This document shows positions 10,700 through 54,669 of a stretch of 64,000 bases of DNA, one piece after another. A model generated the notes under the pieces. That model was not told the DNA's origin, ran no database searches, and worked only from the letters and a program-made list of their open reading frames with translations. The stretch spans positions 118,050,001 to 118,114,000 of the forward strand of contig CM059431.1 in NCBI GenBank assembly GCA_030390025.1, written 5' to 3'. The position numbers and the translations under genes are program-made. Within the stretch, counting starts at the first letter, position 1; every line of letters begins with the position of its first letter. This DNA comes from Squalus acanthias (Eukaryota).

Positions 10700-12010
10700 G
10701 AACATAAGAACATAAGAACTAGGGGCAGGAGTAGGCCATACGGGCCCTCGAGCCTGCTCCACCATTCAATAAGATCATGGCTGATCTACGACCTCAACAC
10801 CACTTTCCTGCCCTATCCCCATTACCCTTGATTCCCCTAGAGTGCAAAAATCTATCTATCTCAACCTTGAATATACTCAAAGACTCAGCATGCACAGCCC
10901 TTTGGGTAGAGAATTCCAAAGATTCACAACCCTCTGGGTGAAGAAGTTCCTTCTTATCTCAGTCTTAAAAGGCTGGCCCCTTATCCTGAGACTATGCCCC
11001 CTAGTTCTGGACTTTCCAGCCAGGGGAAACTATCTCTCAGCATCTATCCTGTAAATCTCCCTCAGAATCTTATATGCTTCAATGAGATCTCCTCTCATTC
11101 TTCTAAATTCCAAAGAGTACAGGCCTAATTTACTCAATCTCTCCTCAAAGAACAACCCTCTCATCCCAAGGATTAGTCTAGTAAACCTTTGTTGAACCGC
11201 CTCTAAGGCAAGTATATCCTTCCTTAAATAGGGAGACCAAAACTGTACACAGTACTCCAGGTGTGGTCTCACCAAAGCCCTGTGCAATTGTAGCAAGACT
11301 TCCCTACTCTTGTACTCTAACCCACTAGTAATAAAGGCCAACATGCCATTTGCCTTCCTAATTGCTTGCTGTACCTGCATACTAACTCTCTGTGTTTCCT
11401 GTATGAGGACACCTAAATCGCTCTGAATACCAACATTTAATAGTTTATCACTAGTTTAAAAATATTCTGTTTTTTTATTCTTCCTACCAAAGTGAATAAC
11501 CTCACATTTCCCCACATTATTCTCCATCTGCCATCTTATTGCCCACTCACTTAACCTGTCTATATCCCTTTGCAAGCTCTTTGTGTCCTCCTTACAGCTT
11601 ACTTTCCCACCTAGCGTTGTATCATCAGCAGACTTGGATAGATTACACACTGTCCCTTCATCTAAGTCAATAACATAGATTGTAAATAGCTGAGGCCCAA
11701 ACACTGATCCTTGCGGCACCCCATTAGTTACAGCCTGCCAATCTGAAAATGACCCGTTTATCCCAACTCTCTGCTTTCTGTCCATTAACCAATCCTCTAT
11801 CCATGCTAATACATTACCTCCAATCCCATGAGCCCTTATCTTGTGTAACAACCTTTTATGTGGCACCTTATCGACTGACTTTTGGAAATCCAAATATACT
11901 ACATCCACTGGTTCCCCTTTATCTACCCTGCTAGTTACATCCTCAAAAACTCTAATAAATTTGTCAAACACGATTTCCCTTTCATAAAACCATGTTGACT
12001 CTGCCGAAAT
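10700..12010 (-). mobile_element. 5'-truncated CR1 LINE (RT C-terminal half plus 3' UTR)
   Basis: ORFs 11456-11971 and 11030-11380 (VDVVYLDFQK, GVPQGSV, ADD, RPHLEYCVQFW). (TTCTTATG)n tail near 10700. Confidence 0.93.
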
Positions 12011-12334
12011 GCCCTGTTACCACTTCCTTAATAATGAGTGGAGATAGCCAGGTCAGGATAATGAAGCTATCTAAAACTTAGCTCCTTCAGTTTGATACAA
12101 TATTGCATTGCACAGAGTCAAAATCAAGCAAAGCAGCAGCAAAGAGTTACATCATTTAAAATAAAGTCAATTTATTTATACAACTAAGTTTGACATTGTG
12201 TATTAATAAAGAAGCAAGTTTTCAAAAGTAAGAATTAAGCAAAATTCATTCTTCTTCATTCATTCATGGTAAATTTCCAAAACATTCATTAAAAATCTTA
12301 CAGTCTCCCGCCCCTTCATAATACTTTATGGGTG

Positions 12335-12619
12335 GAAACAAATAATTTGCTGGAGCGGAACAGCTATAATTATGGGGGATTTTAACTACCATATTAACTG
12401 GACAAATCAAATTGGGCAGGGCAGCCTTGAGGAAGAGTTTATTGAGTGTCTTAGGGATGGATTTCTTGAGCAGTATGTAACTGATCCTACAAGGGGGCAA
12501 GCAACCTTGGACCTGGTCCTGTGTAATGAGTCAGGATTAATTAATAATGTCCTAGTTAAGGATCCCCTTGGAATGAGTGACCATAACATGATTGAATTCC
12601 ATATCCAATTAGAGGGTGA
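12335..12619 (+). mobile_element. CR1 ORF2 endonuclease segment (5' part of the LINE interrupted by the PLE array)
   Basis: MGDFN..., PTRGQATLDLVLCN and SDHNMIEF are APE motifs. The sequence continues at 23157 after the target-site duplication. Confidence 0.9.
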
Positions 12620-12622
12620 TCC

Positions 12623-13172
12623 CCTCCAGCATGATCCCACCACCAAACACATCTTCCCCTCACCTCCCCTTTCAGCATTCCGTAGGGACCGCTCCCTCCG
12701 CGACACCCTAGTCCACTCCTCTACCACCCCCAGCACCCCTTCCCCTTCGCCCGGCACCTTCCCGTGCACGCGCAGGAGATGCAACACATGCCCTTATACC
12801 TCCCCTCTTCCCACTGTCCAGGGCCCCAAACACCCCTTCCAGGTGAAACAGCGATTTACTTGTACTTCCTGCAATTTAGTATACTGTATTCGCTGCTCAC
12901 GATGTGGACTCCTCTACATTGGGGAGACCAAACGCAGATTGGGTGACCGCTTTGCGGAACACCTCCGTTCAGTCCGTAAGGGGGACCCCGAGCTCCCGGT
13001 GGCCTGTCACTTTAATTCACCGCTTCACTCCCACTCTGACCTCACCGTCCTCGGCCTATTACACTGTTCCACGGAAGCTTAGCGTAAGCTCGAGGAACAG
13101 CACCTCATCTTTCGTTTAGGCACGCTACAGCCCTCTGGACTCAATATCGAGTTCAACAATTTTAGATCATAA
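12623..13172 (+). pseudogene. 5'-truncated PLE ORF end (Cys-knuckle plus GIY-YIG) with premature stop
   Basis: Nearly identical to the C-terminus of the 971-aa ORFs, but with CAG>TAG at 13080-13082. Confidence 0.9.
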
Positions 13173-13451
13173 CCTCAGCTCCAATCACATTTATATTTTA
13201 TTTTATCCACCCTTTTATTTGTCCCCCCCCACCTTTTTTTTTCCCTCCTAGAAGCTGGCAGCTGTCCTTCATTCTGCCAGTGGATTTCACACTTCATTCA
13301 GCCTTAATCTGTCACATTAACACCACCTCTAGCCTTGCATATCTCTTAATGTCTCTTAATGTCTCTTCATCTCCCCCTTTGTTCCTTTATCCCCTCCCCC
13401 TTTTCCCAGCTTTACTCTGGCCTTAAATCTATTTGATTTCCGGCTCTTCCC

Positions 13452-13488
13452 AGTTCTGATGAAAGGTCATCGACCTGAAACGTTAACT
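13452..13488 (+). ncRNA. Minimal type-I hammerhead ribozyme (array copy 1)
   Basis: AGTT-CTGATGA-A-AGGTC(ATC)GACCT-GAAAC-GTT-AACT: stem I AGTT/AACT, stem II AGGTC/GACCT, palindromic AACGTT helix III; predicted cleavage after 13484. Confidence 0.85.
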
Positions 13489-16374
13489 CTCTTTCTCTCT
13501 CCACGGATGCTGCCTGGCCTGCTGAGTTTTTCCAGCGTTTTCTGTTGTTATATCGTATTTCCAGCATCCGCAGTATTTTGCTATCGTATTAGTGTTTGGT
13601 TCACTGCCACCTTTCTTCTTGGAATGCCTACCTTGAAGAAGTTCTGCTCTTCTCTTCGACGGGATTTCCGTTTGGCTCTTCAACCTTGTTCATCTTCATT
13701 GATTTCAGTTTCCCTTCTCGTGTTTGATCAGGTATCTGCCAAGACTCGGTTTCACAGCCACATTACTTTCCTCAGCAACTGTCTCCGGTTCCGACTTATC
13801 CCACGTGGATTCCAACTAAACTTCCACCCTTCGTGTTTCGGATCCACCCAGGATTACAAATATCTCCAAGATATTCATCGTTCCTCGAACTACTGCTCTC
13901 GCCGCATCTTGAGATCCACGCTCAACGCCATGCGGCGCCACATGAACACTCTCGACATCTCTCTTCAGCAGCACCGACGCACTCTATCTCAAAGCTGTCC
14001 GGGTCCACAGTTCCATTTCATCCTTAGACTCATCCGACGCTTCAACAAAAAACTTTTCTTCTTCCTTTCCGATGTCAAGGATCGCAAGCTTCAACAACTC
14101 TTGGACACTAAAGCCCCTCCGGAACCTTCTTCCCCTTCACTTTCCTCTGACCCCCCTTCTCCCAATCTCACCCCCTGCCGCGTTTTCACTATCCCCTCTG
14201 ACCTTCCCCTCTCTGACTCCGAACGATCAGTCCTCAGCAAAGGCCTGAGCTTCATCCCCTTACGCCCCCATCTCAATGAATTTCGAGCTCGGCACGATGC
14301 TGAGCTCTTTTTCCGCCGCCTCCGTCTCCGTGCCCACTTCTCTGGCCAGGAGTCTTCCCCCCGCACGGCTGACCCTTTCTCCCGCTTTCAGAATTCTCGT
14401 TCCACCTGGACCCCTCCCTCTGGCCTCTTACCCTCTCTTGATCTTTTCATTGCTAACTGCCGCCGTGACATCGGCCAGCTCAATTTCTCTGCTCCCCTCA
14501 CTCACTCCAACCTACCTCCCTCTGAACTTGCAGCACTCCATTCTCTCCGATCCAACCCTGACATTGTCATTAAACCTGCTGACAAGGGTGGCGCTGTTGT
14601 TGTTTGGCGAACCGACCTCTACCTAGCGGAAGTTGAACGCCAACTCTCTGACACCTCCTCCTACCTCCACCTGGACCATGACCCCACTACCGAACATCAA
14701 GCCACCGTGTCCAAGACTGTCACTGACCTCATCTCCTCTGGAGATCTTCCCCCCACGGCCGCCAACCTCATAGTTCCCCAACCCCGCACAGCCCGCTTCT
14801 ACCTCCTTCCCAAGATCCACAAACAGGACTGCCCTGGTAGACCCATCGTTTCAGCCTGTTCTTGCCCCACGGAACTTATCTCTTCCTATCTCGACTCTAT
14901 TTTTTCTCCCCTTGTCCAGTCTCTTCCCACCTACATCCGCGACTCTTCCGATGCCCTCCGCCATTTTAACAGTTTCCAGTTTCCCGGCCCCAACCGTCTC
15001 CTCTTCACTATGGACGTACAATCCCTCTACACCTCCATTCCCCACCAGGATGGCCTGAGGGCGCTCCGCTTCTTCCTTGAACAGTGGCCCAACCAGTCCC
15101 CATCCACCACCACCCTCCTCCGCCTGGCTGAACTTGTTCTCACATTGAACAACTTCTCCTTTGACTCTACCCATTTCCTCCAAATTAAAGGTGTTGCTAT
15201 GGGTACCCGCATGGGTCCTAGCTATGCCTGCCTTTTCGTGGGATATGTGGAACACTCTTTGTTCCAGTCCTACTCGGGTCCCCTCCCTCACCTCTTTTTC
15301 CGGTACATTGATGACTGTATCGGTGCCGTCTCCTGCTCTCGCCCTGAACTAGAACATTTCATTCACTATGCTTCCAATTTCCACCCTTCCCTCACCTTCA
15401 CATGGTCCATCTCCGACTCTTCCCTTCCCTTCCTCGACTTCTCCATCTCCATCTCTGGGGATAGGTTATTGACTAACATTCACTACAAGCCCACCGACTC
15501 CCACAGCTACCTGGACTACACTTCCTCCCACCCCGCCTCCTGTAAGGACTCTATTCCATTCTCCCAGTTTCTCCGTCTCCGCCGCATCTGCTCTGATGAT
15601 GCCACCTTCCATACCAGTGCTTCCGACATGTCTTCCTTTTTCCTCAACCGAGGATTCCCCTCTACCGTGGTCGACACGGCCCTCGACCGTGTCCGTTCTA
15701 TCTCCCGCACATCTGCCCTCACCCCTGCCCCTCCCTCCCGGAACCACGATAGGGTTCCCCTTGTCCTCACCTTTCACCCCACCAGCCTCCACATTCAACG
15801 GATCATCCTCCGCCATTTCCGCCACCTCCAGCGTGATCCCACCACCAAACACATCTTCCCCTCACCTCCCCTTTCAGCATTCCGTAGGGACCGCTCCCTC
15901 CGCGACACCCTAGTCCACTCCTCTACCACCCCCAGCACCCCTTCCCCTTCGCCCGGCACCTTCCCGTGCACGCGCAGGAGATGCAACACATGCCCTTATA
16001 CCTCCCCTCTTCCCACTGTCCAGGGCCCCAAACACCCCTTCCAGGTGAAACAGCGATTTACTTGTACTTCCTGCAATTTAGTATACTGTATTCGCTGCTC
16101 ACGATGTGGACTCCTCTACATTGGGGAGACCAAACGCAGATTGGGTGACCGCTTTGCGGAACACCTCCGTTCAGTCCGTAAGGGGGACCCCGAGCTCCCG
16201 GTGGCCTGTCACTTTAATTCACCGCTTCACTCCCACTCTGACCTCACCGTCCTCGGCCTATTACACTGTTCCACGGAAGCTCAGCGTAAGCTCGAGGAAC
16301 AGCACCTCATCTTTCGTTTAGGCACGCTACAGCCCTCTGGACTCAATATCGAGTTCAACAATTTTAGATCATAA
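13459..16374 (+). CDS. Penelope-like element polyprotein: reverse transcriptase, CxxxxCxxC knuckle and GIY-YIG endonuclease (true start probably downstream, e.g. 13624)
   Basis: Intact 971-aa ORF with KPADKG, FYLLPKIHK, GRPI, MDVQSLYTSI, GVAMG, RYIDD, LPFLD, CTRRRCNTC, VYCIRCSRCGLLYIGET and GLN motifs. Confidence 0.95.
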   Translation: MKGHRPETLTLFLSPRMLPGLLSFSSVFCCYIVFPASAVFCYRISVWFTATFLLGMPTLKKFCSSLRRDFRLALQPCSSSLISVSLLVFDQVSAKTRFHSHITFLSNCLRFRLIPRGFQLNFHPSCFGSTQDYKYLQDIHRSSNYCSRRILRSTLNAMRRHMNTLDISLQQHRRTLSQSCPGPQFHFILRLIRRFNKKLFFFLSDVKDRKLQQLLDTKAPPEPSSPSLSSDPPSPNLTPCRVFTIPSDLPLSDSERSVLSKGLSFIPLRPHLNEFRARHDAELFFRRLRLRAHFSGQESSPRTADPFSRFQNSRSTWTPPSGLLPSLDLFIANCRRDIGQLNFSAPLTHSNLPPSELAALHSLRSNPDIVIKPADKGGAVVVWRTDLYLAEVERQLSDTSSYLHLDHDPTTEHQATVSKTVTDLISSGDLPPTAANLIVPQPRTARFYLLPKIHKQDCPGRPIVSACSCPTELISSYLDSIFSPLVQSLPTYIRDSSDALRHFNSFQFPGPNRLLFTMDVQSLYTSIPHQDGLRALRFFLEQWPNQSPSTTTLLRLAELVLTLNNFSFDSTHFLQIKGVAMGTRMGPSYACLFVGYVEHSLFQSYSGPLPHLFFRYIDDCIGAVSCSRPELEHFIHYASNFHPSLTFTWSISDSSLPFLDFSISISGDRLLTNIHYKPTDSHSYLDYTSSHPASCKDSIPFSQFLRLRRICSDDATFHTSASDMSSFFLNRGFPSTVVDTALDRVRSISRTSALTPAPPSRNHDRVPLVLTFHPTSLHIQRIILRHFRHLQRDPTTKHIFPSPPLSAFRRDRSLRDTLVHSSTTPSTPSPSPGTFPCTRRRCNTCPYTSPLPTVQGPKHPFQVKQRFTCTSCNLVYCIRCSRCGLLYIGETKRRLGDRFAEHLRSVRKGDPELPVACHFNSPLHSHSDLTVLGLLHCSTEAQRKLEEQHLIFRLGTLQPSGLNIEFNNFRS

Positions 16375-16653
16375 CCTCAGCTCCAATCACATTTATATTT
16401 TATTTTATCCACCCTTTTATTTGTCCCCCCCCACCTTTTTTTTTCCCTCCTAGAAGCTGGCAGCTGTCCTTCATTCTGCCAGTGGATTTCACACTTCATT
16501 CAGCCTTAATCTGTCACATTAACACCACCTCTAGCCTTGCATATCTCTTAATGTCTCTTAATGTCTCTTCATCTCCCCCTTTGTTCCTTTATCCCCTCCC
16601 CCTTTTCCCAGCTTTACCCTGGCCTTAAATCTATTTGATTTCCGGCTCTTCCC

Positions 16654-16690
16654 AGTTCTGATGAAAGGTCATCGACCTGAAACGTTAACT
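16654..16690 (+). ncRNA. Minimal type-I hammerhead ribozyme (array copy 2)
   Basis: Identical to 13452-13488. Confidence 0.85.
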
Positions 16691-19576
16691 CTCTTTCTCT
16701 CTCCACGGATGCTGCCTGGCCTGCTGAGTTTTTCCAGCGTTTTCTGTTGTTATATCGTATTTCCAGCATCCGCAGTATTTTGCTATCGTATTAGTGTTTG
16801 GTTCACTGCCACCTTTCTTCTTGGAATGCCTACCTTGAAGAAGTTCTGCTCTTCTCTTCGACGGGATTTCCGTTTGGCTCTTCAACCTTGTTCATCTTCA
16901 TTGATTTCAGTTTCCCTTCTCGTGTTTGATCAGGTATCTGCCAAGACTCGGTTTCACAGCCACATTACTTTCCTCAGCAACTGTCTCCGGTTCCGACTTA
17001 TCCCACGTGGATTCCAACAAAACTTCCACCCTTCGTGTTTCGGATCCACCCAGGATTACAAATATCTCCAAGATATTCATCGTTCCTCGAACTACTGCTC
17101 TCGCCGCATCTTGAGATCCACGCTCAACGCCATGCGGCGCCACATGAACACTCTCGACATCTCTCTTCAGCAGCACCGACGCACTCTATCTCAAAGCTGT
17201 CCGGGTCCACAGTTCCATTTCATCCTTAGACTCATCCGACGCTTCAACAAAAAACTTTTCTTCTTCCTTTCCGATGTCAAGGATCGCAAGCTTCAACAAC
17301 TCTTGGACACTAAAGCCCCTCCGGAACCTTCTTCCCCTTCACTTTCCTCTGACCCCCCTTCTCCCAATCTCACCCCCTGCCGCGTTTTCACTATCCCCTC
17401 TGACCTTCCCCTCTCTGACTCCGAACGATCAGTCCTCAGCAAAGGCCTGAGCTTCATCCCCTTACGCCCCCATCTCAATGAATTTCGAGCTCGGCACGAT
17501 GCTGAGCTCTTTTTCCGCCGCCTCCGTCTCCGTGCCCACTTCTCTGGCCAGGAGTCTTCCCCCCGCACGGCTGACCCTTTCTCCCGCTTTCAGAATTCTC
17601 GTTCCACCTGGACCCCTCCCCCTGGCCTCTTACCCTCTCTTGATCTTTTCATTGCTAACTGCCGCCGTGACATCGGCCAGCTCAATTTCTCTGCTCCCCT
17701 CACTCACTCCAACCTACCTCCCTCTGAACTTGCAGCACTCCATTCTCTCCGATCCAACCCTGACATTGTCATTAAACCTGCTGACAAGGGTGGCGCTGTT
17801 GTTGTTTGGCGAACCGACCTCTACCTAGCGGAAGTTGAACGCCAACTCTCTGACACCTCCTCCTACCTCCACCTGGACCATGACCCCACTACCGAACATC
17901 AAGCCACCGTGTCCAAGACTGTCACTGACCTCATCTCCTCTGGAGATCTTCCCCCCACGGCCGCCAACCTCATAGTTCCCCAACCCCGCACAGCCCGCTT
18001 CTACCTCCTTCCCAAGATCCACAAACAGGACTGCCCCGGTAGACCCATCGTTTCAGCCTGTTCTTGCCCCACGGAACTTATCTCTTCCTATCTCGACTCT
18101 ATTTTTTCTCCCCTTGTCCAGTCTCTTCCCACCTACATCCGCGACTCTTCCGATGCCCTCCGCCATTTTAACAGTTTCCAGTTTCCCGGCCCCAACCGTC
18201 TCCTCTTCACTATGGACGTACAATCCCTCTACACCTCCATTCCCCACCAGGATGGCCTGAGGGCGCTCCGCTTCTTCCTTGAACAGAGGCCCAACCAGTC
18301 CCCATCCACCACCACCCTCCTCCGCCTGGCTGAACTTGTTCTCACATTGAACAACTTCTCCTTTGACTCTACCCATTTCCTCCAAATTAAAGGTGTTGCT
18401 ATGGGTACCCGCATGGGTCCTAGCTATGCCTGCCTTTTCGTGGGATATGTGGAACACTCTTTGTTCCAGTCCTACTCGGGTCCCCTCCCTCACCTCTTTT
18501 TCCGGTACATTGATGACTGTATCGGTGCCGTCTCCTGCTCTCGCCCTGAACTAGAACATTTCATTCACTATGCTTCCAATTTCCACCCTTCCCTCACCTT
18601 CACATGGTCCATCTCCGACTCTTCCCTTCCCTTCCTCGACTTCTCCATCTCCATCTCTGGGGATAGGTTATTGACTAACATTCACTACAAGCCCACCGAC
18701 TCCCACAGCTACCTGGACTACACTTCCTCCCACCCCGCCTCCTGTAAGGACTCTATTCCATTCTCCCAGTTTCTCCGTCTCCGCCGCATCTGCTCTGATG
18801 ATGCCACCTTCCATACCAGTGCTTCCGACATGTCTTCCTTTTTCCTCAACCGAGGATTCCCCTCTACCGTGGTCGACACGGCCCTCGACCGTGTCCGTTC
18901 TATCTCCCGCACATCTGCCCTCACCCCTGCCCCTCCCTCCCGGAACCACGATAGGGTTCCCCTTGTCCTCACCTTTCACCCCACCAGCCTCCACATTCAA
19001 CGGATCATCCTCCGCCATTTCCGCCACCTCCAGCGTGATCCCACCACCAAACACATCTTCCCCTCACCTCCCCTTTCAGCATTCCGTAGGGACCGCTCCC
19101 TCCGCGACACCCTAGTCCACTCCTCTACCACCCCCAGCACCCCTTCCCCTTCGCCCGGCACCTTCCCGTGCACGCGCAGGAGATGCAACACATGCCCTTA
19201 TACCTCCCCTCTTCCCACTGTCCAGGGCCCCAAACACCCCTTCCAGGTGAAACAGCGATTTACTTGTACTTCCTGCAATTTAGTATACTGTATTCGCTGC
19301 TCACGATGTGGACTCCTCTACATTGGGGAGACCAAACGCAGATTGGGTGACCGCTTTGCGGAACACCTCCGTTCAGTCCGTAAGGGGGACCCCGAGCTCC
19401 CGGTGGCCTGTCACTTTAATTCACCGCTTCACTCCCACTCTGACCTCACCGTCCTCGGCCTATTACACTGTTCCACGGAAGCTCAGCGTAAGCTCGAGGA
19501 ACAGCACCTCATCTTTCGTTTAGGCACGCTACAGCCCTCTGGACTCAATATCGAGTTCAACAATTTTAGATCATAA
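16661..19576 (+). CDS. Penelope-like RT/GIY-YIG polyprotein (unit 2)
   Basis: Intact 971-aa ORF; 3 amino-acid differences from unit 1 seen (L>Q, S>P, W>R). Confidence 0.95.
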   Translation: MKGHRPETLTLFLSPRMLPGLLSFSSVFCCYIVFPASAVFCYRISVWFTATFLLGMPTLKKFCSSLRRDFRLALQPCSSSLISVSLLVFDQVSAKTRFHSHITFLSNCLRFRLIPRGFQQNFHPSCFGSTQDYKYLQDIHRSSNYCSRRILRSTLNAMRRHMNTLDISLQQHRRTLSQSCPGPQFHFILRLIRRFNKKLFFFLSDVKDRKLQQLLDTKAPPEPSSPSLSSDPPSPNLTPCRVFTIPSDLPLSDSERSVLSKGLSFIPLRPHLNEFRARHDAELFFRRLRLRAHFSGQESSPRTADPFSRFQNSRSTWTPPPGLLPSLDLFIANCRRDIGQLNFSAPLTHSNLPPSELAALHSLRSNPDIVIKPADKGGAVVVWRTDLYLAEVERQLSDTSSYLHLDHDPTTEHQATVSKTVTDLISSGDLPPTAANLIVPQPRTARFYLLPKIHKQDCPGRPIVSACSCPTELISSYLDSIFSPLVQSLPTYIRDSSDALRHFNSFQFPGPNRLLFTMDVQSLYTSIPHQDGLRALRFFLEQRPNQSPSTTTLLRLAELVLTLNNFSFDSTHFLQIKGVAMGTRMGPSYACLFVGYVEHSLFQSYSGPLPHLFFRYIDDCIGAVSCSRPELEHFIHYASNFHPSLTFTWSISDSSLPFLDFSISISGDRLLTNIHYKPTDSHSYLDYTSSHPASCKDSIPFSQFLRLRRICSDDATFHTSASDMSSFFLNRGFPSTVVDTALDRVRSISRTSALTPAPPSRNHDRVPLVLTFHPTSLHIQRIILRHFRHLQRDPTTKHIFPSPPLSAFRRDRSLRDTLVHSSTTPSTPSPSPGTFPCTRRRCNTCPYTSPLPTVQGPKHPFQVKQRFTCTSCNLVYCIRCSRCGLLYIGETKRRLGDRFAEHLRSVRKGDPELPVACHFNSPLHSHSDLTVLGLLHCSTEAQRKLEEQHLIFRLGTLQPSGLNIEFNNFRS

Positions 19577-19855
19577 CCTCAGCTCCAATCACATTTATAT
19601 TTTATTTTATCCACCCTTTTATTTGTCCCCCCCCACCTTTTTTTTTCCCTCCTAGAAGCTGGCAGCTGTCCTTCATTCTGCCAGTGGATTTCACACTTCA
19701 TTCAGCCTTAATCTGTCACATTAACACCACCTCTAGCCTTGCATATCTCTTAATGTCTCTTAATGTCTCTTCATCTCCCCCTTTGTTCCTTTATCCCCTC
19801 CCCCTTTTCCCAGCTTTACCCTGGCCTTAAATCTATTTGATTTCCGGCTCTTCCC

Positions 19856-19892
19856 AGTTCTGATGAAAGGTCATCGACCTGAAACGTTAACT
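19856..19892 (+). ncRNA. Minimal type-I hammerhead ribozyme (array copy 3)
   Basis: Identical to 13452-13488. Confidence 0.85.
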
Positions 19893-22778
19893 CTCTTTCT
19901 CTCTCCACGGATGCTGCCTGGCCTGCTGAGTTTTTCCAGCGTTTTCTGTTGTTATATCGTATTTCCAGCATCCGCAGTATTTTGCTATCGTATTAGTGTT
20001 TGGTTCACTGCCACCTTTCTTCTTGGAATGCCTACCTTGAAGAAGTTCTGCTCTTCTCTTCGACGGGATTTCCGTTTGGCTCTTCAACCTTGTTCATCTT
20101 CATTGATTTCAGTTTCCCTTCTCGTGTTTGATCAGGTATCTGCCAAGACTCGGTTTCACAGCCACATTACTTTCCTCAGCAACTGTCTCCGGTTCCGACT
20201 TATCCCACGTGGATTCCAACAAAACTTCCACCCTTCGTGTTTCGGATCCACCCAGGATTACAAATATCTCCAAGATATTCATCGTTCCTCGAACTACTGC
20301 TCTCGCCGCATCTTGAGATCCACGCTCAACGCCATGCGGCGCCACATGAACACTCTCGACATCTCTCTTCAGCAGCACCGACGCACTCTATCTCAAAGCT
20401 GTCCGGGTCCACAGTTCCATTTCATCCTTAGACTCATCCGACGCTTCAACAAAAAACTTTTCTTCTTCCTTTCCGATGTCAAGGATCGCAAGCTTCAACA
20501 ACTCTTGGACACTAAAGCCCCTCCGGAACCTTCTTCCCCTTCACTTTCCTCTGACCCCCCTTCTCCCAATCTCACCCCCTGCCGCGTTTTCACTATCCCC
20601 TCTGACCTTCCCCTCTCTGACTCCGAACGATCAGTCCTCAGCAAAGGCCTGAGCTTCATCCCCTTACGCCCCCATCTCAATGAATTTCGAGCTCGGCACG
20701 ATGCTGAGCTCTTTTTCCGCCGCCTCCGTCTCCGTGCCCACTTCTCTGGCCAGGAGTCTTCCCCCCGCACGGCTGACCCTTTCTCCCGCTTTCAGAATTC
20801 TCGTTCCACCTGGACCCCTCCCCCTGGCCTCTTACCCTCTCTTGATCTTTTCATTGCTAACTGCCGCCGTGACATCGGCCAGCTCAATTTCTCTGCTCCC
20901 CTCACTCACTCCAACCTACCTCCCTCTGAACTTGCAGCACTCCATTCTCTCCGATCCAACCCTGACATTGTCATTAAACCTGCTGACAAGGGTGGCGCTG
21001 TTGTTGTTTGGCGAACCGACCTCTACCTAGCGGAAGTTGAACGCCAACTCTCTGACACCTCCTCCTACCTCCACCTGGACCATGACCCCACTACCGAACA
21101 TCAAGCCACCGTGTCCAAGACTGTCACTGACCTCATCTCCTCTGGAGATCTTCCCCCCACGGCCGCCAACCTCATAGTTCCCCAACCCCGCACAGCCCGC
21201 TTCTACCTCCTTCCCAAGATCCACAAACAGGACTGCCCTGGTAGACCCATCGTTTCAGCCTGTTCTTGCCCCACGGAACTTATCTCTTCCTATCTCGACT
21301 CTATTTTTTCTCCCCTTGTCCAGTCTCTTCCCACCTACATCCGCGACTCTTCCGATGCCCTCCGCCATTTTAACAGTTTCCAGTTTCCCGGCCCCAACCG
21401 TCTCCTCTTCACTATGGACGTACAATCCCTCTACACCTCCATTCCCCACCAGGATGGCCTGAGGGCGCTCCGCTTCTTCCTTGAACAGTGGCCCAACCAG
21501 TCCCCATCCACCACCACCCTCCTCCGCCTGGCTGAACTTGTTCTCACATTGAACAACTTCTCCTTTGACTCTACCCATTTCCTCCAAATTAAAGGTGTTG
21601 CTATGGGTACCCGCGTGGGTCCTAGCTATGTCTGCCTTTTCGTGGGATATGTGGAACACTCTTTGTTCCAGTCCTACTCGGGTCCCCTCCCTCACCTCTT
21701 TTTCCGGTACATTGATGACTGTATCGGTGCCGTCTCCTGCTCTCGCCCTGAACTAGAACATTTCATTCACTATGCTTCCAATTTCCACCCTTCCCATACC
21801 TTCACATGGTCCATCTCCGACTCTTCCCTTCCCTTCCTCGACTTCTCCATCTCCATCTCTGGGGATAGGTTATTGACTAACATTCACTACAAGCCCACCG
21901 ACTCCCACAGCTACCTGGACTACACTTCCTCCCACCCCGCCTCCTGTAAGGACTCTATTCCATTCTCCCAGTTTCTCCGTCTCCGCCGCATCTGCTCTGA
22001 TGATGCCACCTTCCATACCAGTGCTTCCGACATGTCTTCCTTTTTCCTCAACCGAGGATTCCCCTCTACCGTGGTCGACACGGCCCTCGACCGTGTCCGT
22101 TCTATCTCCCGCACATCTGCCCTCACCCCTGCCCCTCCCTCCCGGAACCACGATAGGGTTCCCCTTGTCCTCACCTTTCACCCCACCAGCCTCCACATTC
22201 AACGGATCATCCTCCGCCATTTCCGCCACCTCCAGCGTGATCCCACCACCAAACACATCTTCCCCTCACCTCCCCTTTCAGCATTCCGTAGGGACCGCTC
22301 CCTCCGCGACACCCTAGTCCACTCCTCTACCACCCCCAGCACCCCTTCCCCTTCGCCCGGCACCTTCCCGTGCACGCGCAGGAGATGCAACACATGCCCT
22401 TATACCTCCCCTCTTCCCACTGTCCAGGGCCCCAAACACCCCTTCCAGGTGAAACAGCGATTTACTTGTACTTCCTGCAATTTAGTATACTGTATTCGCT
22501 GCTCACGATGTGGACTCCTCTACATTGGGGAGACCAAACGCAGATTGGGTGACCGCTTTGCGGAACACCTCCGTTCAGTCCGTAAGGGGGACCCCGAGCT
22601 CCCGGTGGCCTGTCACTTTAATTCACCGCTTCACTCCCACTCTGACCTCACCGTCCTCGGCCTATTACACTGTTCCACAGAAGCTCAGCGTAAGCTCGAG
22701 GAACAGCACCTCATCTTTCGTTTAGGCACGCTACAGCCCTCTGGACTCAATATCGAGTTCAACAATTTCAGATCATAA
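19863..22778 (+). CDS. Penelope-like RT/GIY-YIG polyprotein (unit 3)
   Basis: Intact 971-aa ORF with private changes TRVGPSYVC and PSHTF. Confidence 0.95.
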   Translation: MKGHRPETLTLFLSPRMLPGLLSFSSVFCCYIVFPASAVFCYRISVWFTATFLLGMPTLKKFCSSLRRDFRLALQPCSSSLISVSLLVFDQVSAKTRFHSHITFLSNCLRFRLIPRGFQQNFHPSCFGSTQDYKYLQDIHRSSNYCSRRILRSTLNAMRRHMNTLDISLQQHRRTLSQSCPGPQFHFILRLIRRFNKKLFFFLSDVKDRKLQQLLDTKAPPEPSSPSLSSDPPSPNLTPCRVFTIPSDLPLSDSERSVLSKGLSFIPLRPHLNEFRARHDAELFFRRLRLRAHFSGQESSPRTADPFSRFQNSRSTWTPPPGLLPSLDLFIANCRRDIGQLNFSAPLTHSNLPPSELAALHSLRSNPDIVIKPADKGGAVVVWRTDLYLAEVERQLSDTSSYLHLDHDPTTEHQATVSKTVTDLISSGDLPPTAANLIVPQPRTARFYLLPKIHKQDCPGRPIVSACSCPTELISSYLDSIFSPLVQSLPTYIRDSSDALRHFNSFQFPGPNRLLFTMDVQSLYTSIPHQDGLRALRFFLEQWPNQSPSTTTLLRLAELVLTLNNFSFDSTHFLQIKGVAMGTRVGPSYVCLFVGYVEHSLFQSYSGPLPHLFFRYIDDCIGAVSCSRPELEHFIHYASNFHPSHTFTWSISDSSLPFLDFSISISGDRLLTNIHYKPTDSHSYLDYTSSHPASCKDSIPFSQFLRLRRICSDDATFHTSASDMSSFFLNRGFPSTVVDTALDRVRSISRTSALTPAPPSRNHDRVPLVLTFHPTSLHIQRIILRHFRHLQRDPTTKHIFPSPPLSAFRRDRSLRDTLVHSSTTPSTPSPSPGTFPCTRRRCNTCPYTSPLPTVQGPKHPFQVKQRFTCTSCNLVYCIRCSRCGLLYIGETKRRLGDRFAEHLRSVRKGDPELPVACHFNSPLHSHSDLTVLGLLHCSTEAQRKLEEQHLIFRLGTLQPSGLNIEFNNFRS

Positions 22779-23057
22779 CCTCAGCTCCAATCACATTTAT
22801 ATTTTATTTTATCCACCCTTTTATTTGTCCCCCCCCACCTTTTTTTTTCCCTCCTAGAAGCTGGCAGCTGTCCTTCATTCTGCCAGTGGATTTCACACTT
22901 CATTCAGCCTTAATCTGTCACATTAACACCACCTCTAGCCTTGCATATCTCTTAATGTCTCTTAATGTCTCTTCAACTCCCCCTTTGTTCCTTTATCCCC
23001 TCCCCCTTTTCCCAGCTTTACCCTGGCCTTAAATCTATTTGATTTCCGGCTCTTCCC

Positions 23058-23094
23058 GGTTCTGATGAAAGGTCATCGACCTGAAACGTTAACT
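23058..23094 (+). ncRNA. Minimal type-I hammerhead ribozyme (array copy 4, terminal)
   Basis: GGTT-CTGATGAAAGGTCATCGACCTGAAACGTT-AACT; the A>G change in stem I leaves a G-U pair. Confidence 0.83.
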
Positions 23095-23156
23095 CTCTTT
23101 CTCTCTCCACGGATGCTGCCTGGCCTGCTGAGTTTTTCCAGCGTTTTCTGTTGTTA

Positions 23157-25509
23157 TAGAGGGTGAGAAGGTTGCTTCTCAAACAAGCATACTGAGCTTG
23201 AATAAAGGAGACTATGATGGTATGAGAGCAGAATTGATTAAAGTGGACTGGGAAAATAGATTAAAGGGTAAGACGGTACATGAGCAGTGGTGTTCATTCA
23301 AGGAGTTATTTTACAACTTTCAAAATAAATATATTCCACTGAGGAAAAAAGAAATGACAGCCATCCATGGCTAAGTAAAGAAATTAAAGAAAGTCTCCAA
23401 CTAAAAACAAGAACATATAAGGTAGCCAAAGTTAGTGGGAGGATAGAGGATTGGGAAGTCTTCAAAAGACAACAAAAAGTAACAAAAGGATTGATTAAGA
23501 AAGGGAAAATAGACTATGAAAATAAATTAGCAAAAAATATAAAAACAGATAGCAAGAGTTTCTATAGTTATATTAAAAGAAAAAGGGTGGTTAAGGCAAA
23601 CGTAGGTCCATTAGAGGATGAGACCGGGAAATTAATGGTGGGAAACATGGAGATGGCAAAAATGCTGAACAAATATTTTGTTTCAGTCTTTACGGTATAG
23701 GACACTAAGAATATCCCAACACTGGACAAACAGGGGGCTCTAGTGGGGGAGGAGCTAAATACGATTAAAATCACTAAGGAATTGGTACTCAGTAAAATAA
23801 TGGGACTCAAGGCGGATAAATCCCCTGGACCTGATGGCTTACATCCTAGGGTCTTGAGGGAAGTGGCAGTAGGAATTGTGGATGCTTTGGTAATAATTTT
23901 CCAAAACTCCCTGAACTCAGCAAAGGTCCCGGCAGATTGAAAAACTGCTAATGTAACACCCTTATTGAAAAAGGGTTGTAGGCAGAAGGCTGGAAATTAT
24001 AGACCAGTTAGCCTAACATCTGTGGTGGGTAAAATTTTGGAGTCTATTATTAAGGAGACAGTAACGGAACATTTAGATAAACATAATTTAATAGGACAAA
24101 GTCAGCATGGCTTTATGAAGGGGAAGTCATGTCTGACAAATTTGCTCGAGTTCTTTGAGGACATAATGTACAGGGTGGATAAAGGGGAACCAGTGGATGT
24201 AGTGTATTTAGACTTCCAGAAGGCATTCGACAAGGTGCCACATAAAAGATTATTACTCAAGATAAAAAATCACTGGATTGGGGGTAATATTCTGGCATGG
24301 GTGGAGGATTGGTTATCTAACAGGAAGCAGAGAGTTGGGATAAATGGTTCATTCTCGGACTGGCAACCAGTAGCCAGTGGTGTTCCGCAGGGGTCGGTGC
24401 TGGGTCCCCAACTCTTTACAATCTATATAAACGATTTGGAGGAGGGGACCGAGTTTAACATATCAAAGTTTGCAGATGATACAAAGATGGGAGGGAAAGT
24501 AGAGAGTGAGGAGGACATAAAAAACCTACAAGGGGATATAGACAGGTTGGGTGAGTGGGCAGAGATTTGGCAGATGCAATACAATATTGGAAAATGTGAG
24601 GTTATGCACTTTGGCAGGAAAAATCAGAGAGCAAGTTATTATCTTAATGGCGAGAAACTGGAAAGTACTGCAGTACAAAGGGATCTGGGGGTCTTGGTGC
24701 AAGAAAATCAAAAAGTTAGTATGCAGGTGCAGCAGGTGATCAAGAAAGCCAATGGAATGTTGGCTTTTATTGCTAGGGGGATAGAATATAAAAACAGGGA
24801 GGTATTGCTGCAGTTGTATAGGGTATTGGTGAGACCGCACCTGGAATACTGCATACAGTTTTGGTGTCCATACTTAAGAAAAGACATACTTGCTCTCGAG
24901 GCAGTACAAAGAAGGTTCACTCAGTTCATTCTGGGGTTGAGGGGATGGACATACGACGAGAGGATAAGTAGATTGGGACTCTACTCATTGGAGTTCAGAA
25001 GAATGAGAGGCGATCTTATTGAAACATATAAGATTGTGAAGGGGCTTGATCGGGTGAACGCAGTGAGGATGTTCCCAAGGATGGGTGAAACTAGAACTAG
25101 GGGACATAATCTTAGAATAAGGGGCTGCTCTTTCAAAACTGAGATGAGGAGAAACTTTTTCACTCAGAGGGTAGTGGGTCTGTGGAATTTGCTACCCCAG
25201 GAAGCTGTGGAAGCTACTTCATTAAATAAATTTAAAACAGAAATAGGCAGTTTCCTAGAAGTAAAGGGAATTAGGGGTTACGGGGAGCGGGCTGGAAATT
25301 GGACATGAGTTTGAGTTCGGATCGGTCAAGGCCCTGTGGGTGGCGGAGCGGGCCCAGGGGCCGAGTGGCCTGGTCCTGCTCCTACTTCTTGTGTTCTTTA
25401 GAGTTGAGGTTGGATCAGATCAGCCATGATCTCATTGAATGGCGGAGCAGGCTCGAGGGGCCGATTGGTCTGCTCCTGCTCCTATTTCTTATGTTCTTAT
25501 GTTCTTATG
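23157..25509 (+). mobile_element. CR1 LINE ORF2 (RT) and 3' UTR, continuation of 12335-12619
   Basis: 447-aa RT ORF 23965-25308 (NYRPVSLTS, LDFQKAFDKV, GVPQGSVLGP, FADD) with upstream stops at ~23698 and ~23938; (TTCTTATG)n tail at ~25487-25509. Confidence 0.95.
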
Positions 25510-27409: not shown

Positions 27410-30169
27410 TGTCGCATCCTGAGTTCCACGCTCAACGCTATGAGCCGCCACATGCACTCTCTCGACCTCTCTCTTCAGCAGCATCGATTCACTCTATCCC
27501 AAAGCTGTCCTGGTCCACAGTTCCATTTCACCTTTCGCCTCATCCGGTGGTTTAACAAAAACTTTTTTTCTTCCTTTCAGGTGTCAAGGAACCTACTTCC
27601 CCTTCACTTTCCTCTGACCCCATCCCATCTTCCAATCTCACCCCCTGCCATGTTTTCATTATCCCCTCTGACCTTCCCCTCTTGGACCCTGAACGATCAG
27701 TCCTCAGCAAAGGCCTCAGCTTCATCCCCTTACACCCCCACCTCAATGAATTTCGAGCTCGGCACGATGCTGAGCTCTTTTACCATTGCCTTTGTCTCTG
27801 TGCCCACTTCTTTGGCCAGGAGACTTCCCTCCGCACAGTAGACCTTTTCTCGATTTCAGAATTCTCGTTCTACCTGGACCCCTCCCCCTGGCCTCTTACC
27901 CTCTCTAGAACTTTTCATTGCTAACTGCCGGCGTGACATCGGCCATCTCCAGTTCTCTGCTCCCCTCACTCACTCCAACCTACCTCCATCTGAACTTGCA
28001 GCACTCCATTCTCTCAGATCCATCTCCAACATTGTTATTAAACCTGCTGACAAGGGTGGCGCTGTTGTTGTTTGGCAAACCGACCGCTACCTTGCAGAGG
28101 CTGAACGCCAACTCTCTGACACCTACTCCTACCTCCCCCTTGACCATGACCCCACTACCGAACATCAAGCCAACATTTCCAAGACTGTCACTGACCTCAT
28201 TTCCTCTGGAGATCTTACCTCCACGGCCACCAACCTCATAGTCCCCAATCCCGCACAATCCGCTTCTACTCCTTCCCAAGATCCACAAACAGGACTGCCC
28301 TGGTAGACCCATCATTTCAGCCTGTTCTTGCCCCATGGAACTATTTTCTTCCTAGCTCAACTCTATTTTTTCTCTCCTTGTTCAGTTTCTTCCCACCTAC
28401 ATCCGTGACTCTTCCGACACCCTCCACCAATTTAACAGTTTCCTGTTTCCTTCCCCAACTGTCTCCTTTTCACCATGGGCATCCAATCCCTCTACACCTC
28501 TATCCCCTACCAGGACAGCCCCACTTCTTCCTTGAACAGAGGCCCAACCTGTCCCCCTCCACCACCACCCTCCTCTGCGTGGCTGAACTTGTTATCACGT
28601 TGAACAATTTCTCCTTTGACTCCACTCACTTCCTCCAAATAAAAGGTGTTGCTATGGGAACCTGCATGGGTCCTAGCTATGCCTGCTTTTTCGTAGGATA
28701 TGTGGAACATTCTTTGTTCCAGACCTACTCATGTCCTCTCCCTCACCTCTTTTTCCATTACATTGATGACTGTATCAGTGCCGTTTCCTGCTCTCGCCCT
28801 GAACTGGAAAATTTCATTCACTTTGCTTCCAATTTCCACGCTTCCCTCACCTTCACATGGTCCATCTTCGAATCTTCTCTTCCCTTCCTTGGCTTCTCTG
28901 TCTCCATTTCTGGGGATAGGCTATTGACAAACATCCACTATAAGCTCACTGACTCCCACAGCTACCTGGACTACACTTCTTCCCACTTCACTTCCTGTAA
29001 GGACTCTATTCTATTCTCCCAATTTCTCCATCTCCTTCCCATCTGTTCTGACAATGCTACTTTCTATACTAGTGCTTCCGATATGTCTTCCTTTTTCCTC
29101 AATCGAGGATTCCCCTCTACCATAGTTAACATGGACCTCGACTGTGTCCATTCCATTTCCCGCACTTCTGCTCTCACCCCTTCCCCTCCCTCCCAGAACC
29201 ACGCTAGGGTTCCCCTTGTCCTCACCTTGCATTCTACCAGCCTTCACATTCAACAGATCATCTCCACTATTTCCACCATCTCCAGCGTGATCACACCACC
29301 AAACACATCTTCCCCTCCCCTCCCCTTTCAGCATTCTGAAGGGACCGCTCCCTTCATGACACCCTGGTCCACTCCTCAGTCACCTCCATTACCCCCTCCC
29401 CTTTCCACAGCACCTTCCCGTGCAAGTACAGGAGATGCAACACCTGCCTTTTTACCTCCTCCCTTCCCACTGTCCAGAGCCCCAAACACTCCTTCCAGGT
29501 GAAACAGTGATTTACTTGTACTTCTTGCAATTTAGTATACTGTATTCGCTGCTCACGATGAGGTCTCCTCTACATTGGGGAGACCAAAGGCAGATTGGGT
29601 GTCCGCTTTGCAGAACACCTCCATTCAGTTTGCAAGTGTGACCTCGTGCTTCTGGTCACCTGTCACTTTAATTCTCCGCTCCACTCCCACTCTGACCTCT
29701 CTGTTCTCGGTCTCTTACACAGTTCCAATGAAGCTCAATGTAAGCTCAAGGAACAGCACCTCATCTTTCGATTAAGCAATTTACAGCCTTCTGGACTCAA
29801 CATTGAGTTCAACAATTTCAGACCATAATCTCTGCCCCTATTTTTTCAGATGGCTGCTGTTGATGATTTCCATTCACACCTCTTCTAGACCCATCTTTTG
29901 TTTCTTTACTTGTCCCATTACCATCTCCTTATGCTTTATACAAACTTTTGTCATTTAAACACTCCTGCCTTCCACCCTATCACAGACCTTCCCTTTAGTT
30001 CTTTCCTCCCTTCCCCACTTTCCCTGCCCCTGCACTTGCTTAAAATCTGTTACATCTCTAACTTTTCTCGTTCTGATGAAAGGTCATCGACCTGAAACGT
30101 TAACTCTGTTTCTCTCTCCACAGAGGCTGCCTGACCTGCTGAGTATTTCCAGCATTTTCTGTTTTTATT
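27410..30169 (+). mobile_element. Older, degenerate near-full-length Penelope-like element with hammerhead tail
   Basis: Frameshifted homolog of the 971-aa ORF. Hammerhead at ~30069-30105. Flanked by TTAATATTATGGTA (27396-27409) and TTAATGTTATGGTA (30170-30183). Confidence 0.93.
30069..30105 (+). ncRNA. Hammerhead ribozyme motif of the degenerate PLE
   Basis: GTT-CTGATGAAAGGTCATCGACCTGAAACGTT-AAC; the core is identical to the array copies. Confidence 0.78.
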
Positions 30170-43925: not shown

Positions 43926-44572
43926 TTGTCTTCCTTTTTCCTCAACCGAGGATTCCCTTCCACCATGGTTGACAGGACCCTCGATCGTGTCTGTTCCATT
44001 TCCTGTACTTCTGCTCTCACCCCTTCCCCTCCCTCCCAGAACCACGATAGGGTTCCCCTTGTCCTCACCTTCCACCCCACTATCCCCTCCCCTTTCAGCA
44101 TTCCGAAGGGACCATTCCCTCCGTGACACCCTGGTCCACTCCTCAATCACCCCCAACATCCCCTCCCCATCCCACGGCACTTCCCTGTGCAAGCGCAGGA
44201 GATGCAACACCTGCCCTTTTACCTCCTCCCTTCCCACCATCCAGAGCCCCAAACACTCCTTCCAGGTGAAACAGAGATTTACTTGTTATTCATTTTAGTA
44301 TACTGTATTCGCTGCTCACGATGTGGTCTCCTCTAAATTGGATAGACCAAACACAGATTGGGTGACTGCTTTGCGGAACACCTCCATTCAGTGACCCCGA
44401 GCTTCCGGTTGCCTGTCACTTTAATTCTTCACTCCAGTCCCACTCTGGCCTCTCTGTCCTCGGCCTCCTACACTGTTCCAATGAAGCTCAATGTAAGCTC
44501 GAGGAACAGCACCTCATCTTTCGATTAGGCACTTTACAGCCTTCCAGACTCAACATTGAGTTCAACAATTTC
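43926..44572 (+). mobile_element. Internal Penelope-like fragment (RT end to GIY-YIG), no hammerhead tail
   Basis: SSFFLNRGFPST..., CKRRRCNTC and CAACATTGAGTTCAACAATTTC match the array ORF; contains deletions. Confidence 0.88.
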
Positions 44573-48229: not shown

Positions 48230-48354
48230 TAGTACATTATGAGCTATGCGCCAGGACTCCTATTAAGACCAGAGAAGAGATTACAATCTTTCAATATTTC
48301 TAGGTGCGTGGATCCAACTAAACATCTTAATATCTGTCTCCTGACTAGTTTGAC

Positions 48355-53849: not shown

Positions 53850-54570
53850 TTGCTTGCTGTACCTGCATGCTTTACTGACTGAGCCGAATGGCTTGTTTCT
53901 ATGTTGTATATTCTATGCAATTCTATGTAAATCTAACCTCTGCATCCTTGGCTACTGACCACACTGGGAATCCCATTAACAGCAGAAGAAAGCCTTTTGT
54001 TAAAACCTGACCATCCGTTTGCTGTTCCACATCTGCCACTTCCACTCTCAAGAAAATTGTGCTGTGCAACTTTGGCACAAGGAAGGTATTTGTGCAAAAG
54101 AGCAATGGTTGTGTACAGTGTTTGAAATGGCATTCCCAGAAGGTGCAGGAGTTCACAACTGGTGTGTGCTATGCTTGCTGAGTTTCGCAAGAAATGAGTG
54201 TCAAAGTAAGGAGCACACTTATCTTCACCTTGGTTCTGATACCAGCTGACCTATTCCTCATTTTCTGCCAGGTACAAGGAGCCGAGGTGACTGAAAAGGC
54301 TTCGTCAGAAACCTCTCTCCACGTATTTATGCTTTTACTGGAGGGTGCATCACCTCCAGCAACACCTCCAAATCTTCAGTATCAAACTGAATAAGTTTGC
54401 GCACATCTCCACTATGCTATTGTGAACAATTGATCTGTGTCTCTGCCACCTCCACAACTTCCCCTTTATGACAGGTGTCACATTTTTGGGTCTTTCCAAA
54501 CTTTTTTTTATCCTAGACTATCTCGTGACTCACTTTTCAGATCATTCCCTTGAGTGAGTGCCAGCTAAGC

Positions 54571-54668
54571 CAGTTCTGACGAAAGTTCGTCGACCTGGGT
54601 CGTGAACTCTGTTTCCTCTCCACAGATGCTGCCTGACCTGCTGATTAGTTCCCGCATTTTCTGTTTTT
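54571..54668 (+). mobile_element. Degenerate solo PLE hammerhead/tail fragment
   Basis: CAGTTCTGACGAAAGTTCGTCGACCTGGGTCGTGAACTCTG...CACAGATGCTGCCTGACCTGCTG; the GAAA core is mutated. Confidence 0.7.
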
Positions 54669-54669
54669 A

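Follow-up and report, generated by a model that had tools for sequence, protein, structure and literature searches.

The stretch of dogfish DNA analysed here, called the window (64,000 nucleotides; Squalus acanthias assembly GCA_030390025.1, contig CM059431.1, positions 118,050,001 to 118,114,000), contains a head-to-tail array of a Penelope-like element (PLE). The array occupies window positions 12623-23158 and consists of one 5'-truncated unit of 930 bp (U0) followed by three full units of 3202 bp (U1, U2 and U3), 3.29 units in all. An earlier reading of the same DNA, made from its letters alone (the sequence-only reading), had described a 3.3-unit concatemer at this place, and that description holds, with an exact period. 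The array is a real and very young PLE insertion, and its architecture is the standard one that has already been described for such elements, so that no new kind of system need be invoked. For its origin we give a probability of roughly 55% to the account in which a single target-primed event on a continuous template produced the full 3.3 units.

Shifted by 3202 positions, the sequence matches itself at 98-100 of every 100 bases over window positions 12700-19899, compared with a background of about 20-35 per 100 in the flanks; over the array, this comparison gives 16 mismatches per ~7300 positions. Compared column by column, with the unit phase set by the 3' end of the array, the units show 15 variable columns and no indels, and they are 99.7-99.9% identical to one another. 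The window sequence is free of N. The three intact open reading frames (ORFs) of 971 amino acids (aa) that the sequence-only reading had reported, each combining reverse transcriptase (RT) and GIY-YIG endonuclease, were found at the 3202-bp period (Table 1), and all three start 94 nt ahead of the end of the preceding unit. Because every ORF begins in the preceding unit, three intact ORFs require all 3.3 units.

The array is bounded by a single target-site duplication, the 10-bp sequence TAGAGGGTGA, which is present in the whole window at 12610 and 23157 only, directly outside the array, as had been claimed. Scripted deletion of the array and of one duplication copy yields a continuous reading frame (...SDHNMIEFHIQLEG followed immediately by EKVASQ...) belonging to a long interspersed nuclear element (LINE). 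This host LINE unites an EEP endonuclease and an RT in one element, and its frame is unbroken across the reconstructed empty site. In Pfam searches, Exo_endo_phos_2 was found to the left of the array and RVT_1 to the right. The array site lies ~8-10 aa past the end of the Exo_endo_phos_2 match; the insertion is therefore at the C-terminal edge of the LINE endonuclease domain rather than inside it, where the sequence-only reading, which took the LINE for a putative CR1, had put it.

The translation of the element ORF shows YIDD and GIY...YIG (VYCI...YIGE) motifs. A database search with the protein returned 1654 homologues at E<=1e-10, which carry RVT_1, GIY-YIG, PF28514 and PF26215, the PLE domain set. 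The best named homologue comes from the shark Chiloscyllium punctatum; it is uncharacterised and matches 62% of the query at 71% identity. None of the matches in this homologue search was a named member of a PLE clade (Penelope/Poseidon, Neptune, Nematis), and a sequence search of the PDB gave zero matches. Canonical endonuclease-containing (EN+) PLEs are characterised by one ORF with an RT and then a C-terminal GIY-YIG, and by partial-tandem insertions that form pseudo-long terminal repeats (pseudo-LTRs). Both features are present here, the latter in the window array and in all 17 sister insertions described below, and the element is apparently an autonomous, canonical PLE. The domains, the motifs and the homologues bear out the earlier statement that the element is an intact PLE, and sister copies 99.5-99.8% identical mark it as very young. 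The derived changes inside the ORFs comprise six nonsynonymous and three synonymous ones.

Every unit also contains, once, the pattern CTGATGA-N14-GAAACGT, with starts at 13456, 16658, 19860 and 23062; the window holds eight matches to this pattern versus 0.02 expected by chance. The sequence-only reading had located a hammerhead ribozyme at every junction. There is indeed one motif per unit, but it stands 68 nt upstream of the unit boundary and not on the boundary itself. The motif possesses the catalytic core CUGAUGA...GAA, the A15.1/U16.1 pair and a GUH cut triplet, and as a predicted ribozyme it is a minimal, dimer-type hammerhead of the sort described for PLEs in the relevant part of PMC4209133. 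Read by eye, the U1 motif runs AGUU (helix I), CUGAUGA, a bulged A, AGGUC-AUC-GACCU (helix II), GAA, ACGU, U17, the cut, and AACU (helix I). On this reading, helix II would comprise 5 bp (AGGUC/GACCU) preceded by the bulged A on the 5' side, helix I would have just 4 bp, and the palindrome ACGU would stand in the place of helix III. The ATG of the ORF lies inside the CUGAUGA box, with the predicted cut 26 nt past its A. Position H17 (unit position 3134) is U in the array and C in most family copies. The hammerhead core is retained in five older copies in the window and is kept in copies that are 12-20% diverged; its position 7 varies between U and C among old copies, while the remaining core is kept. 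In one old copy helix II reads GGGUC/GACCU, a G-U pair replacing A-U, and true compensatory changes were not found among the copies. Because the entire 100-bp 3' module is conserved as well, the conservation of the motif is not creditable to cleavage alone. Rfam recognised no hammerhead at the gathering score in the whole window, nor at E<=10 in window positions 12000-24000.

Table 1. Positions in the window of the array, its units and motifs, and the surrounding LINE
Feature	Position	Strand	Remarks
Host LINE, degraded, left part	12273-12619	+	C-terminal end of EEP endonuclease domain, SDH motif
Target-site duplication, left copy, TAGAGGGTGA	12610-12619		10 bp; the next 3 nt (12620-12622) fit the unit poorly
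U0, 5'-truncated unit	12623-13552	+	930 bp, unit positions 2273-3202; C-terminal part of ORF with GIY-YIG, 3' untranslated region, hammerhead
U0 minimal hammerhead motif	13452-13488	+	predicted cut after 13484
ORF 1, RT + GIY-YIG	13459-16374	+	971 aa; ATG within U0
U1, full unit	13553-16754	+	3202 bp
U1 minimal hammerhead motif	16654-16690	+	predicted cut after 16686
ORF 2, RT + GIY-YIG	16661-19576	+	971 aa; ATG within U1, inside CUGAUGA box
U2, full unit	16755-19956	+	3202 bp
U2 minimal hammerhead motif	19856-19892	+	predicted cut after 19888
ORF 3, RT + GIY-YIG	19863-22778	+	971 aa; intact
U3, full unit	19957-23158	+	3202 bp; final 2 nt shared with the right duplication copy; 3' end of the short ('no tail') kind
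U3 minimal hammerhead motif	23058-23094	+	helix I altered by A-to-G at 23058; predicted cut after 23090
Target-site duplication, right copy, TAGAGGGTGA	23157-23166		10 bp
Host LINE, right part	23167-25308	+	frame runs on to 23374; RT ORF 23965-25308, RVT_1 E 1.7e-30

Searching the 3.7-Gb assembly, in which the window lies on contig C7, with one unit gave more than 5000 first-look candidates. The best 34 were scored, nearly all of them 99-100% identical, and from among these, 20 ten-kb stretches covering 17 sister insertions were examined. It turns out that each of the 17 consists of a 5'-truncated partial copy and then one full unit (14 loci), two (loci L011/12 and L013) or three (L009/10). 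Complementary DNA (cDNA) longer than one unit is thus the rule in this family. The partial copies measure 14, 31, 35, 285, 397, 443, 503, 579, 732, 742, 908, 1253, 1294, 1305, 1370, 2263 and 2327 bp, so that the 5' ends are scattered, with no pile-up at a single RNA start. The 23 full units of the 17 insertions are 99.5-99.8% identical to U2. The number of units per duplication-bounded insertion, which the sequence-only reading had proposed to survey, is accordingly available for these 17 loci, with the duplication itself (7-16 bp, judged by eye) recognised at 14 of them and ambiguous at L003, L005 and L006. All three multi-unit arrays are among the 14, each enclosed by a single duplication. 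With the window array included, the family has at least four multi-unit arrays with one duplication each (2.0, 2.4, 3.3 and 3.3 units).

Two kinds of 3' end occur. The short one (...GTTGTTAT) is found at nine sister loci and in the window array, and one that is longer by 36-40 bp, ...GCTATCGTA(T), at eight of the 17. This optional extension is the known PLE tail, or second 3' end, as it is presented in the pertinent sections of PMC8557442 and PMC11167929. The predicted cut site falls between unit positions 3134 and 3135, and among the 18 insertions no 5' end is at 3135 and no 3' end at 3134. At unit position 2423, 5' ends seemed to pile up; this was considered as a transcription start and rejected: it is an artefact of a cut at ~4 kb, and the element extends upstream in seven of seven loci. 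Some sister copies bear additional sequence directly upstream of the partial copy, namely a 23-26-nt inverted piece of the element 3' end at L001, a 732-bp inverted copy of the 3' end at L005, and at L006 (2452-2714) a 73-bp piece, unit positions 2458-2530, in tandem ~3.6 times.

Exact-pattern counts, which were made genome-wide and are apparently exhaustive, extend the sample. A 31-mer probe at unit position 265 has 484 exact matches. The first 100 of these represent one three-unit array (1 of ~96 loci), two inverted pairs and otherwise single units; the frequency of 1 in ~96 is a lower bound, because units altered within the probe escape it, as happens in the window array. The two full units of locus L013 have a terminal redundancy of just 35+43 bp (~78 bp) and are enclosed by one 16-bp duplication. 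The two lineage markers of L013 co-occur at six other loci, once per locus, and since the marker region is single at all six lineage-mates, no multi-unit parent is visible for it.

The account that we prefer, deposition of the whole array in a single target-primed event, would begin with a nick made by the GIY-YIG endonuclease in the host LINE. Reverse transcription would then start at the internal 'short' initiation site (...GTTGTTAT) and run for 3.29 unit lengths over a template unbroken past the unit start, and the cDNA would be left 5'-truncated at unit position 2273. Later changes to the array would amount to ~15 point changes (0.14%) plus two or more short exchanges from unit to unit. 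Such an endless template could be a multi-unit read-through RNA, a terminally redundant RNA used with strand transfer, or a ribozyme-made circle; the published biochemistry favours unprocessed linear RNA. The two units of L013, with their ~78 bp of redundancy and their single-copy lineage-mates, support the view that arrays are born multi-unit. The lengths of the cDNAs point the same way. The 14 one-unit loci overshoot the unit start by 874 bp on average, and at a constant probability of stopping, exp(-3202/874) = 2.6% of insertions are predicted to have two or more units. This is of the same order as the 1 in ~96 found, and supports run-on synthesis.

Several observations weigh against deposition in one event, or limit what is built on it. 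The unit number rests on one assembly, the 3.7-Gb one from which the array was read; the sister set, taken from the 34 best-scoring candidates, is a small and score-biased sample for length statistics; and the Pfam matches of the array protein are both sub-threshold (RVT_1 at aa 494-621, 23.6 bits versus a cut-off of 29.6; GIY-YIG at aa 873-909, 20.5 bits versus 22.6). When the 15 variable sites of the array were polarised against 21 units of other loci, 265A and 867C were common to U2 and U3 only, and 1283T and 1533T to U1 and U3 only. Variants shared by two units only imply at least two exchanges between units, or unlike templates, and the array may since have gained or lost units. Furthermore, 3202A, 4T and 61T are in all units, and the 31-mers that carry them occur in the assembly at the three junctions of the array only. 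These three variants lie within 62 bp of a 3202-bp unit, for which the chance is ~0.001, and no source copy bearing them is present in the assembly. Junction variants without a parent mean either that the source copy is missing or that the variants arose locally and spread, i.e. a change in place. Because of the variants common to two units only and of this parentless junction haplotype, the single duplication is no longer proof of a single event. The earlier claim of a one-event insertion thus keeps in its favour the one duplication and the over-unit cDNA at 17 of 17 loci, but it has to be qualified by both classes of variant. The unit differences and the missing parent do not discriminate between a single event and later growth, and sequence exchange between units, or growth in place, may have occurred in the array.

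The remaining variants are distributed as follows. U1 and U2 have no private variants, U0 has three in its 930 bp (2281A, 2730T and 3066T), and U3 has eight, one of which (1675T) is found also in L005. If each shared pair arose in one unit, the counts per unit are 3/2/2/8, which a uniform rate fits (chi-square p=0.055); with all twelve changes assigned to U3, uniform mutation is rejected (p=3e-5). A fourth variant common to the whole array, 2893C, marks a subfamily and has 62 matches. Unit position 1283 is a CpG site, and 1533T is found at 20 other loci, the eight compared being older copies 89.6-98.3% identical. A model with two alternating templates (A-B-A) had been considered from 1283T/1533T and from the presence of 2341A in the first and last members of L011/12. 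It was dropped as unsupported: the eight loci compared for 1533T are those older copies, 2341A is a CpG-site variant with 57 matches, and neither variant shows mixed young templates. The U3 dinucleotide change at 1840-1841 is unique genome-wide by exact count; it is an adjacent-base double substitution, TC to AT at window positions 21796-21797, and a second such substitution, CC to AT, is present at positions 656-657 of the third unit of L009. Substitutions of this kind may be a signature of the copying polymerase.

An array of 1.3 (or 2.3) units could instead have been inserted initially and then have grown in place, by unequal exchange between sister chromatids or homologues, or by re-insertion of its own RNA into its own pseudo-LTR. 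We think this somewhat unlikely. In its favour, 3202A, 4T and 61T, which are confined in the genome to the three junctions of the array and present at each, look as if one local junction had been copied, and 265A, which an exact genome-wide count places in U2 and U3 only, implies that sequence moved locally between units. The concentration of private variants at the edges of the array (three in the 930 bp of U0 and eight in U3, with those of the latter in its 3' half), together with their absence from U1 and U2, is the usual pattern of a homogenised tandem. PLEs also tend to insert into or beside existing copies, as is noted in the part of the review PMC6765202 that bears on this point, and an apparent tandem array of at least nine units of a 2.23-kb derivative is seen on contig C3704. 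However, simple unequal crossover would, by reasoning only, place the recombinant unit centrally, whereas all four shared variants are together in the last one, and gene conversion would be required anyway. L013 shows that two units can be present with a terminal homology of just ~78 bp, multi-unit loci are about as frequent as run-on synthesis predicts, and an array only 0.14% diverged leaves little time for two expansions. An artefact of assembly or polishing is a very improbable source of the unit number or the unit differences. Near-identical repeats of 3.2 kb (units 99.7-99.9% identical) are difficult for some assemblers, and reads misplaced among units could produce the mosaic sharing of variants; the window, however, is without N, the units have their own variants and an exact period, and other contigs carry three further multi-unit arrays of the family that have clean duplications on their flanks.

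The sequence-only reading had favoured a circle: a read-through RNA would be cut at two hammerheads, the 3202-nt monomer would be ligated, and the RT would roll around it 3.3 times in one target-primed event. That idea is not new, since the same route was proposed by Cervera & de la Pena in 2014, to go by the mechanistic part of their paper (PMC4209133), and we regard it as doubtful for this array. Seamless junctions and an exact period are what a circle would give, as are over-unit cDNA at 17 of 17 loci with 5' ends scattered and not piled at one RNA start, a hammerhead-type motif in every unit with a core kept in copies 12-20% diverged, and a two-unit locus (L013) whose six lineage-mates have the marker region once each. 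Yet one circle cannot yield variants in only two of three units without later exchange, and the assembly holds no source copy with the junction variants. The whole 100-bp 3' module is conserved, so that the conservation cannot be credited to cleavage; Rfam models do not recognise the motif, and its cleavage is predicted; and the predicted cut site marks no DNA end in the family (0 of 18 5' ends and 0 of 18 3' ends). In the experiments reported for the PLE PAc, insertion in vitro proceeds normally with ribozyme mutants, and RNA-seq reads that end at the cut site were not found there (PMC11167929). It also seems improbable that the family normally makes its over-unit cDNA from an endless template of either of two particular kinds, a 3.2-kb circle made by the ribozyme or an RNA of unit length with strand transfer from end to end. 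Three features of the DNA would fit such a process: all examined insertions with a full unit overshoot the unit start, at scattered end points and by 874 bp on average; the ~2.6% of multi-unit insertions predicted from this overshoot compares with 1 in ~96 found; and the six lineage-mates of a two-unit array have the marker region once each. The circle mechanism is a published hypothesis, which this locus neither proves nor excludes.

Short forms of the element are far more numerous than full units. A hammerhead 32-mer has 9061 exact matches genome-wide versus 484 for the probe in the 5' part of the ORF. Solo modules of ~100-140 bp, extending from the hammerhead to the 3' end, are present in the window at 1131-1227 and 54570-54669, and, in stretch L012, upstream of the L011/12 array; the first of these is 97.9% identical to the unit and has GCACAAA on both flanks. 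These solo hammerhead-tail modules suggest a short form resembling a short interspersed nuclear element (SINE) or a retrozyme. Among the contigs of four sequencing runs, k-mers of the bin 16654-16759 are 100-1000 times deeper than those of the 5' part of the ORF, and many run contigs cease to match immediately upstream of 16652-16653, or else immediately downstream of 16754 and 16793-16796. Depth and divergence points alike fit very many solo hammerhead-tail copies of 100-140 bp. The four contig sets carry the family states, and not the junction variants of the array, over the 3151-bp stretch compared. In runs labelled as at least seven organisms, no fewer than half of the unit's sampled 31-mers are present, which indicates near-identical family copies beyond one sample or species label.

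On contig C3704, at ~119380-137250 (minus strand), the 2893C probe has nine matches spaced 2229-2232 bp apart and one more 6.8 kb away. From this spacing, the locus looks like a tandem array of at least nine units of a shortened ~2.23-kb derivative of the element. Opposite-strand hammerhead pairs stand head to head, 34-38 bp apart, on contig C1 (for example 10883504/10883538, 31478921/31478955 and 32423951/32423989), and same-strand pairs are ~386 bp and ~1678 bp apart; such spacings indicate that further structural classes of the family, or of its derivatives, exist. The window also contains older related PLE copies or fragments, 77-88% identical to the unit, at 27413-30168 (+), 43927-44571 (+), 46723-48236 (-) and 55997-57332 (-), and is thus rich in PLE remains of several ages.

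The origin of PLE partial tandems is still open in the literature, at least in those parts of PMC11167929, PMC8557442 and PMC4209133 that deal with it, and the array locus alone gives no answer. The family is nevertheless a good natural test bed, because its near-identical full units number in the hundreds, its multi-unit arrays are at least four, and it has lineage markers by which parent and offspring copies can be traced. If unit-length circles, or arrays descended from single-unit parents, were shown, the circular-template hypothesis of 2014 would become directly testable in a vertebrate. If the family does normally copy an endless template of the circular or the strand-transfer kind, the element would be an autonomous, protein-coding counterpart of retrozymes in a vertebrate.

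The element shows the standard PLE set of seamless junctions, pseudo-LTRs, a hammerhead with the ATG in CUGAUGA, a duplication of variable length and, in sister copies, an optional tail. The closest anatomical parallel is PAc, a Poseidon-type PLE of Anolis carolinensis (Frangieh et al. 2024, PMC11167929). As far as the description of PAc in that paper extends, the two share a single ORF with an N-terminal region, an RT and, at the C terminus, GIY-YIG; tandem or partial-tandem copies forming pseudo-LTRs; an ATG at the start of hammerhead stem II with the cut site 26 nt downstream; and two alternative 3' ends 36-40 bp apart, the 'tail'. This likeness is drawn on anatomy, the best named relative of the array protein being the shark protein with 71% identity. 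In the biochemical part of the same paper, PAc reverse transcription is reported to start internally, and two internal start sites are equated with the optional tail. Ribozyme-dead templates are said there to insert equally well in vitro, so that cleavage would be dispensable, and the RNA-seq data discussed include zero reads ending at the cut site; the template in the model proposed is a multi-copy mRNA transcribed from a tandem locus.

Penelope of Drosophila virilis and other canonical EN+ PLEs, in the features covered by the relevant sections of Craig et al. 2021 (PMC8557442) and Weinberg et al. 2019 (PMC6765202), resemble the dogfish family in 5' truncation, in occasional inverted 5' pieces (here at L001 and L005), and in having an optional tail and a hammerhead in the pseudo-LTR. 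The dogfish family differs in being unusually young and uniform, with 484 exact probe matches and full units 99.5-99.8% identical. In the model put forward by Cervera & de la Pena, ligation turns hammerhead-cut RNA into circles that template over-unit reverse transcription, which would explain the tandems; as far as that part of the paper (PMC4209133) goes, this is the same proposal as the circle of the sequence-only reading, and the DNA data neither confirm nor exclude it.

The non-LTR retrozymes of animals, to the extent that they are treated in the pertinent parts of de la Pena et al. 2020 (PMC7229834) and of the preprint by Li et al. 2026 (10.64898/2026.07.22.740005), also invite comparison. 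According to the preprint, animal retrozymes derive from PLE pseudo-LTRs. They too form tandem units, each with a type-I hammerhead, and are proposed in these two sources to be mobilised through circular RNA and PLE enzymes; in the dogfish family, the 100-140-bp hammerhead-tail module is ~19 times commoner than the ORF region. In contrast, retrozymes as portrayed there are short and non-autonomous, do not code for protein, and have circular RNAs that were actually observed, whereas the units of the array are 3.2 kb long, protein-coding and known from DNA, each unit and its neighbour jointly encoding an intact 971-aa RT/endonuclease ORF.

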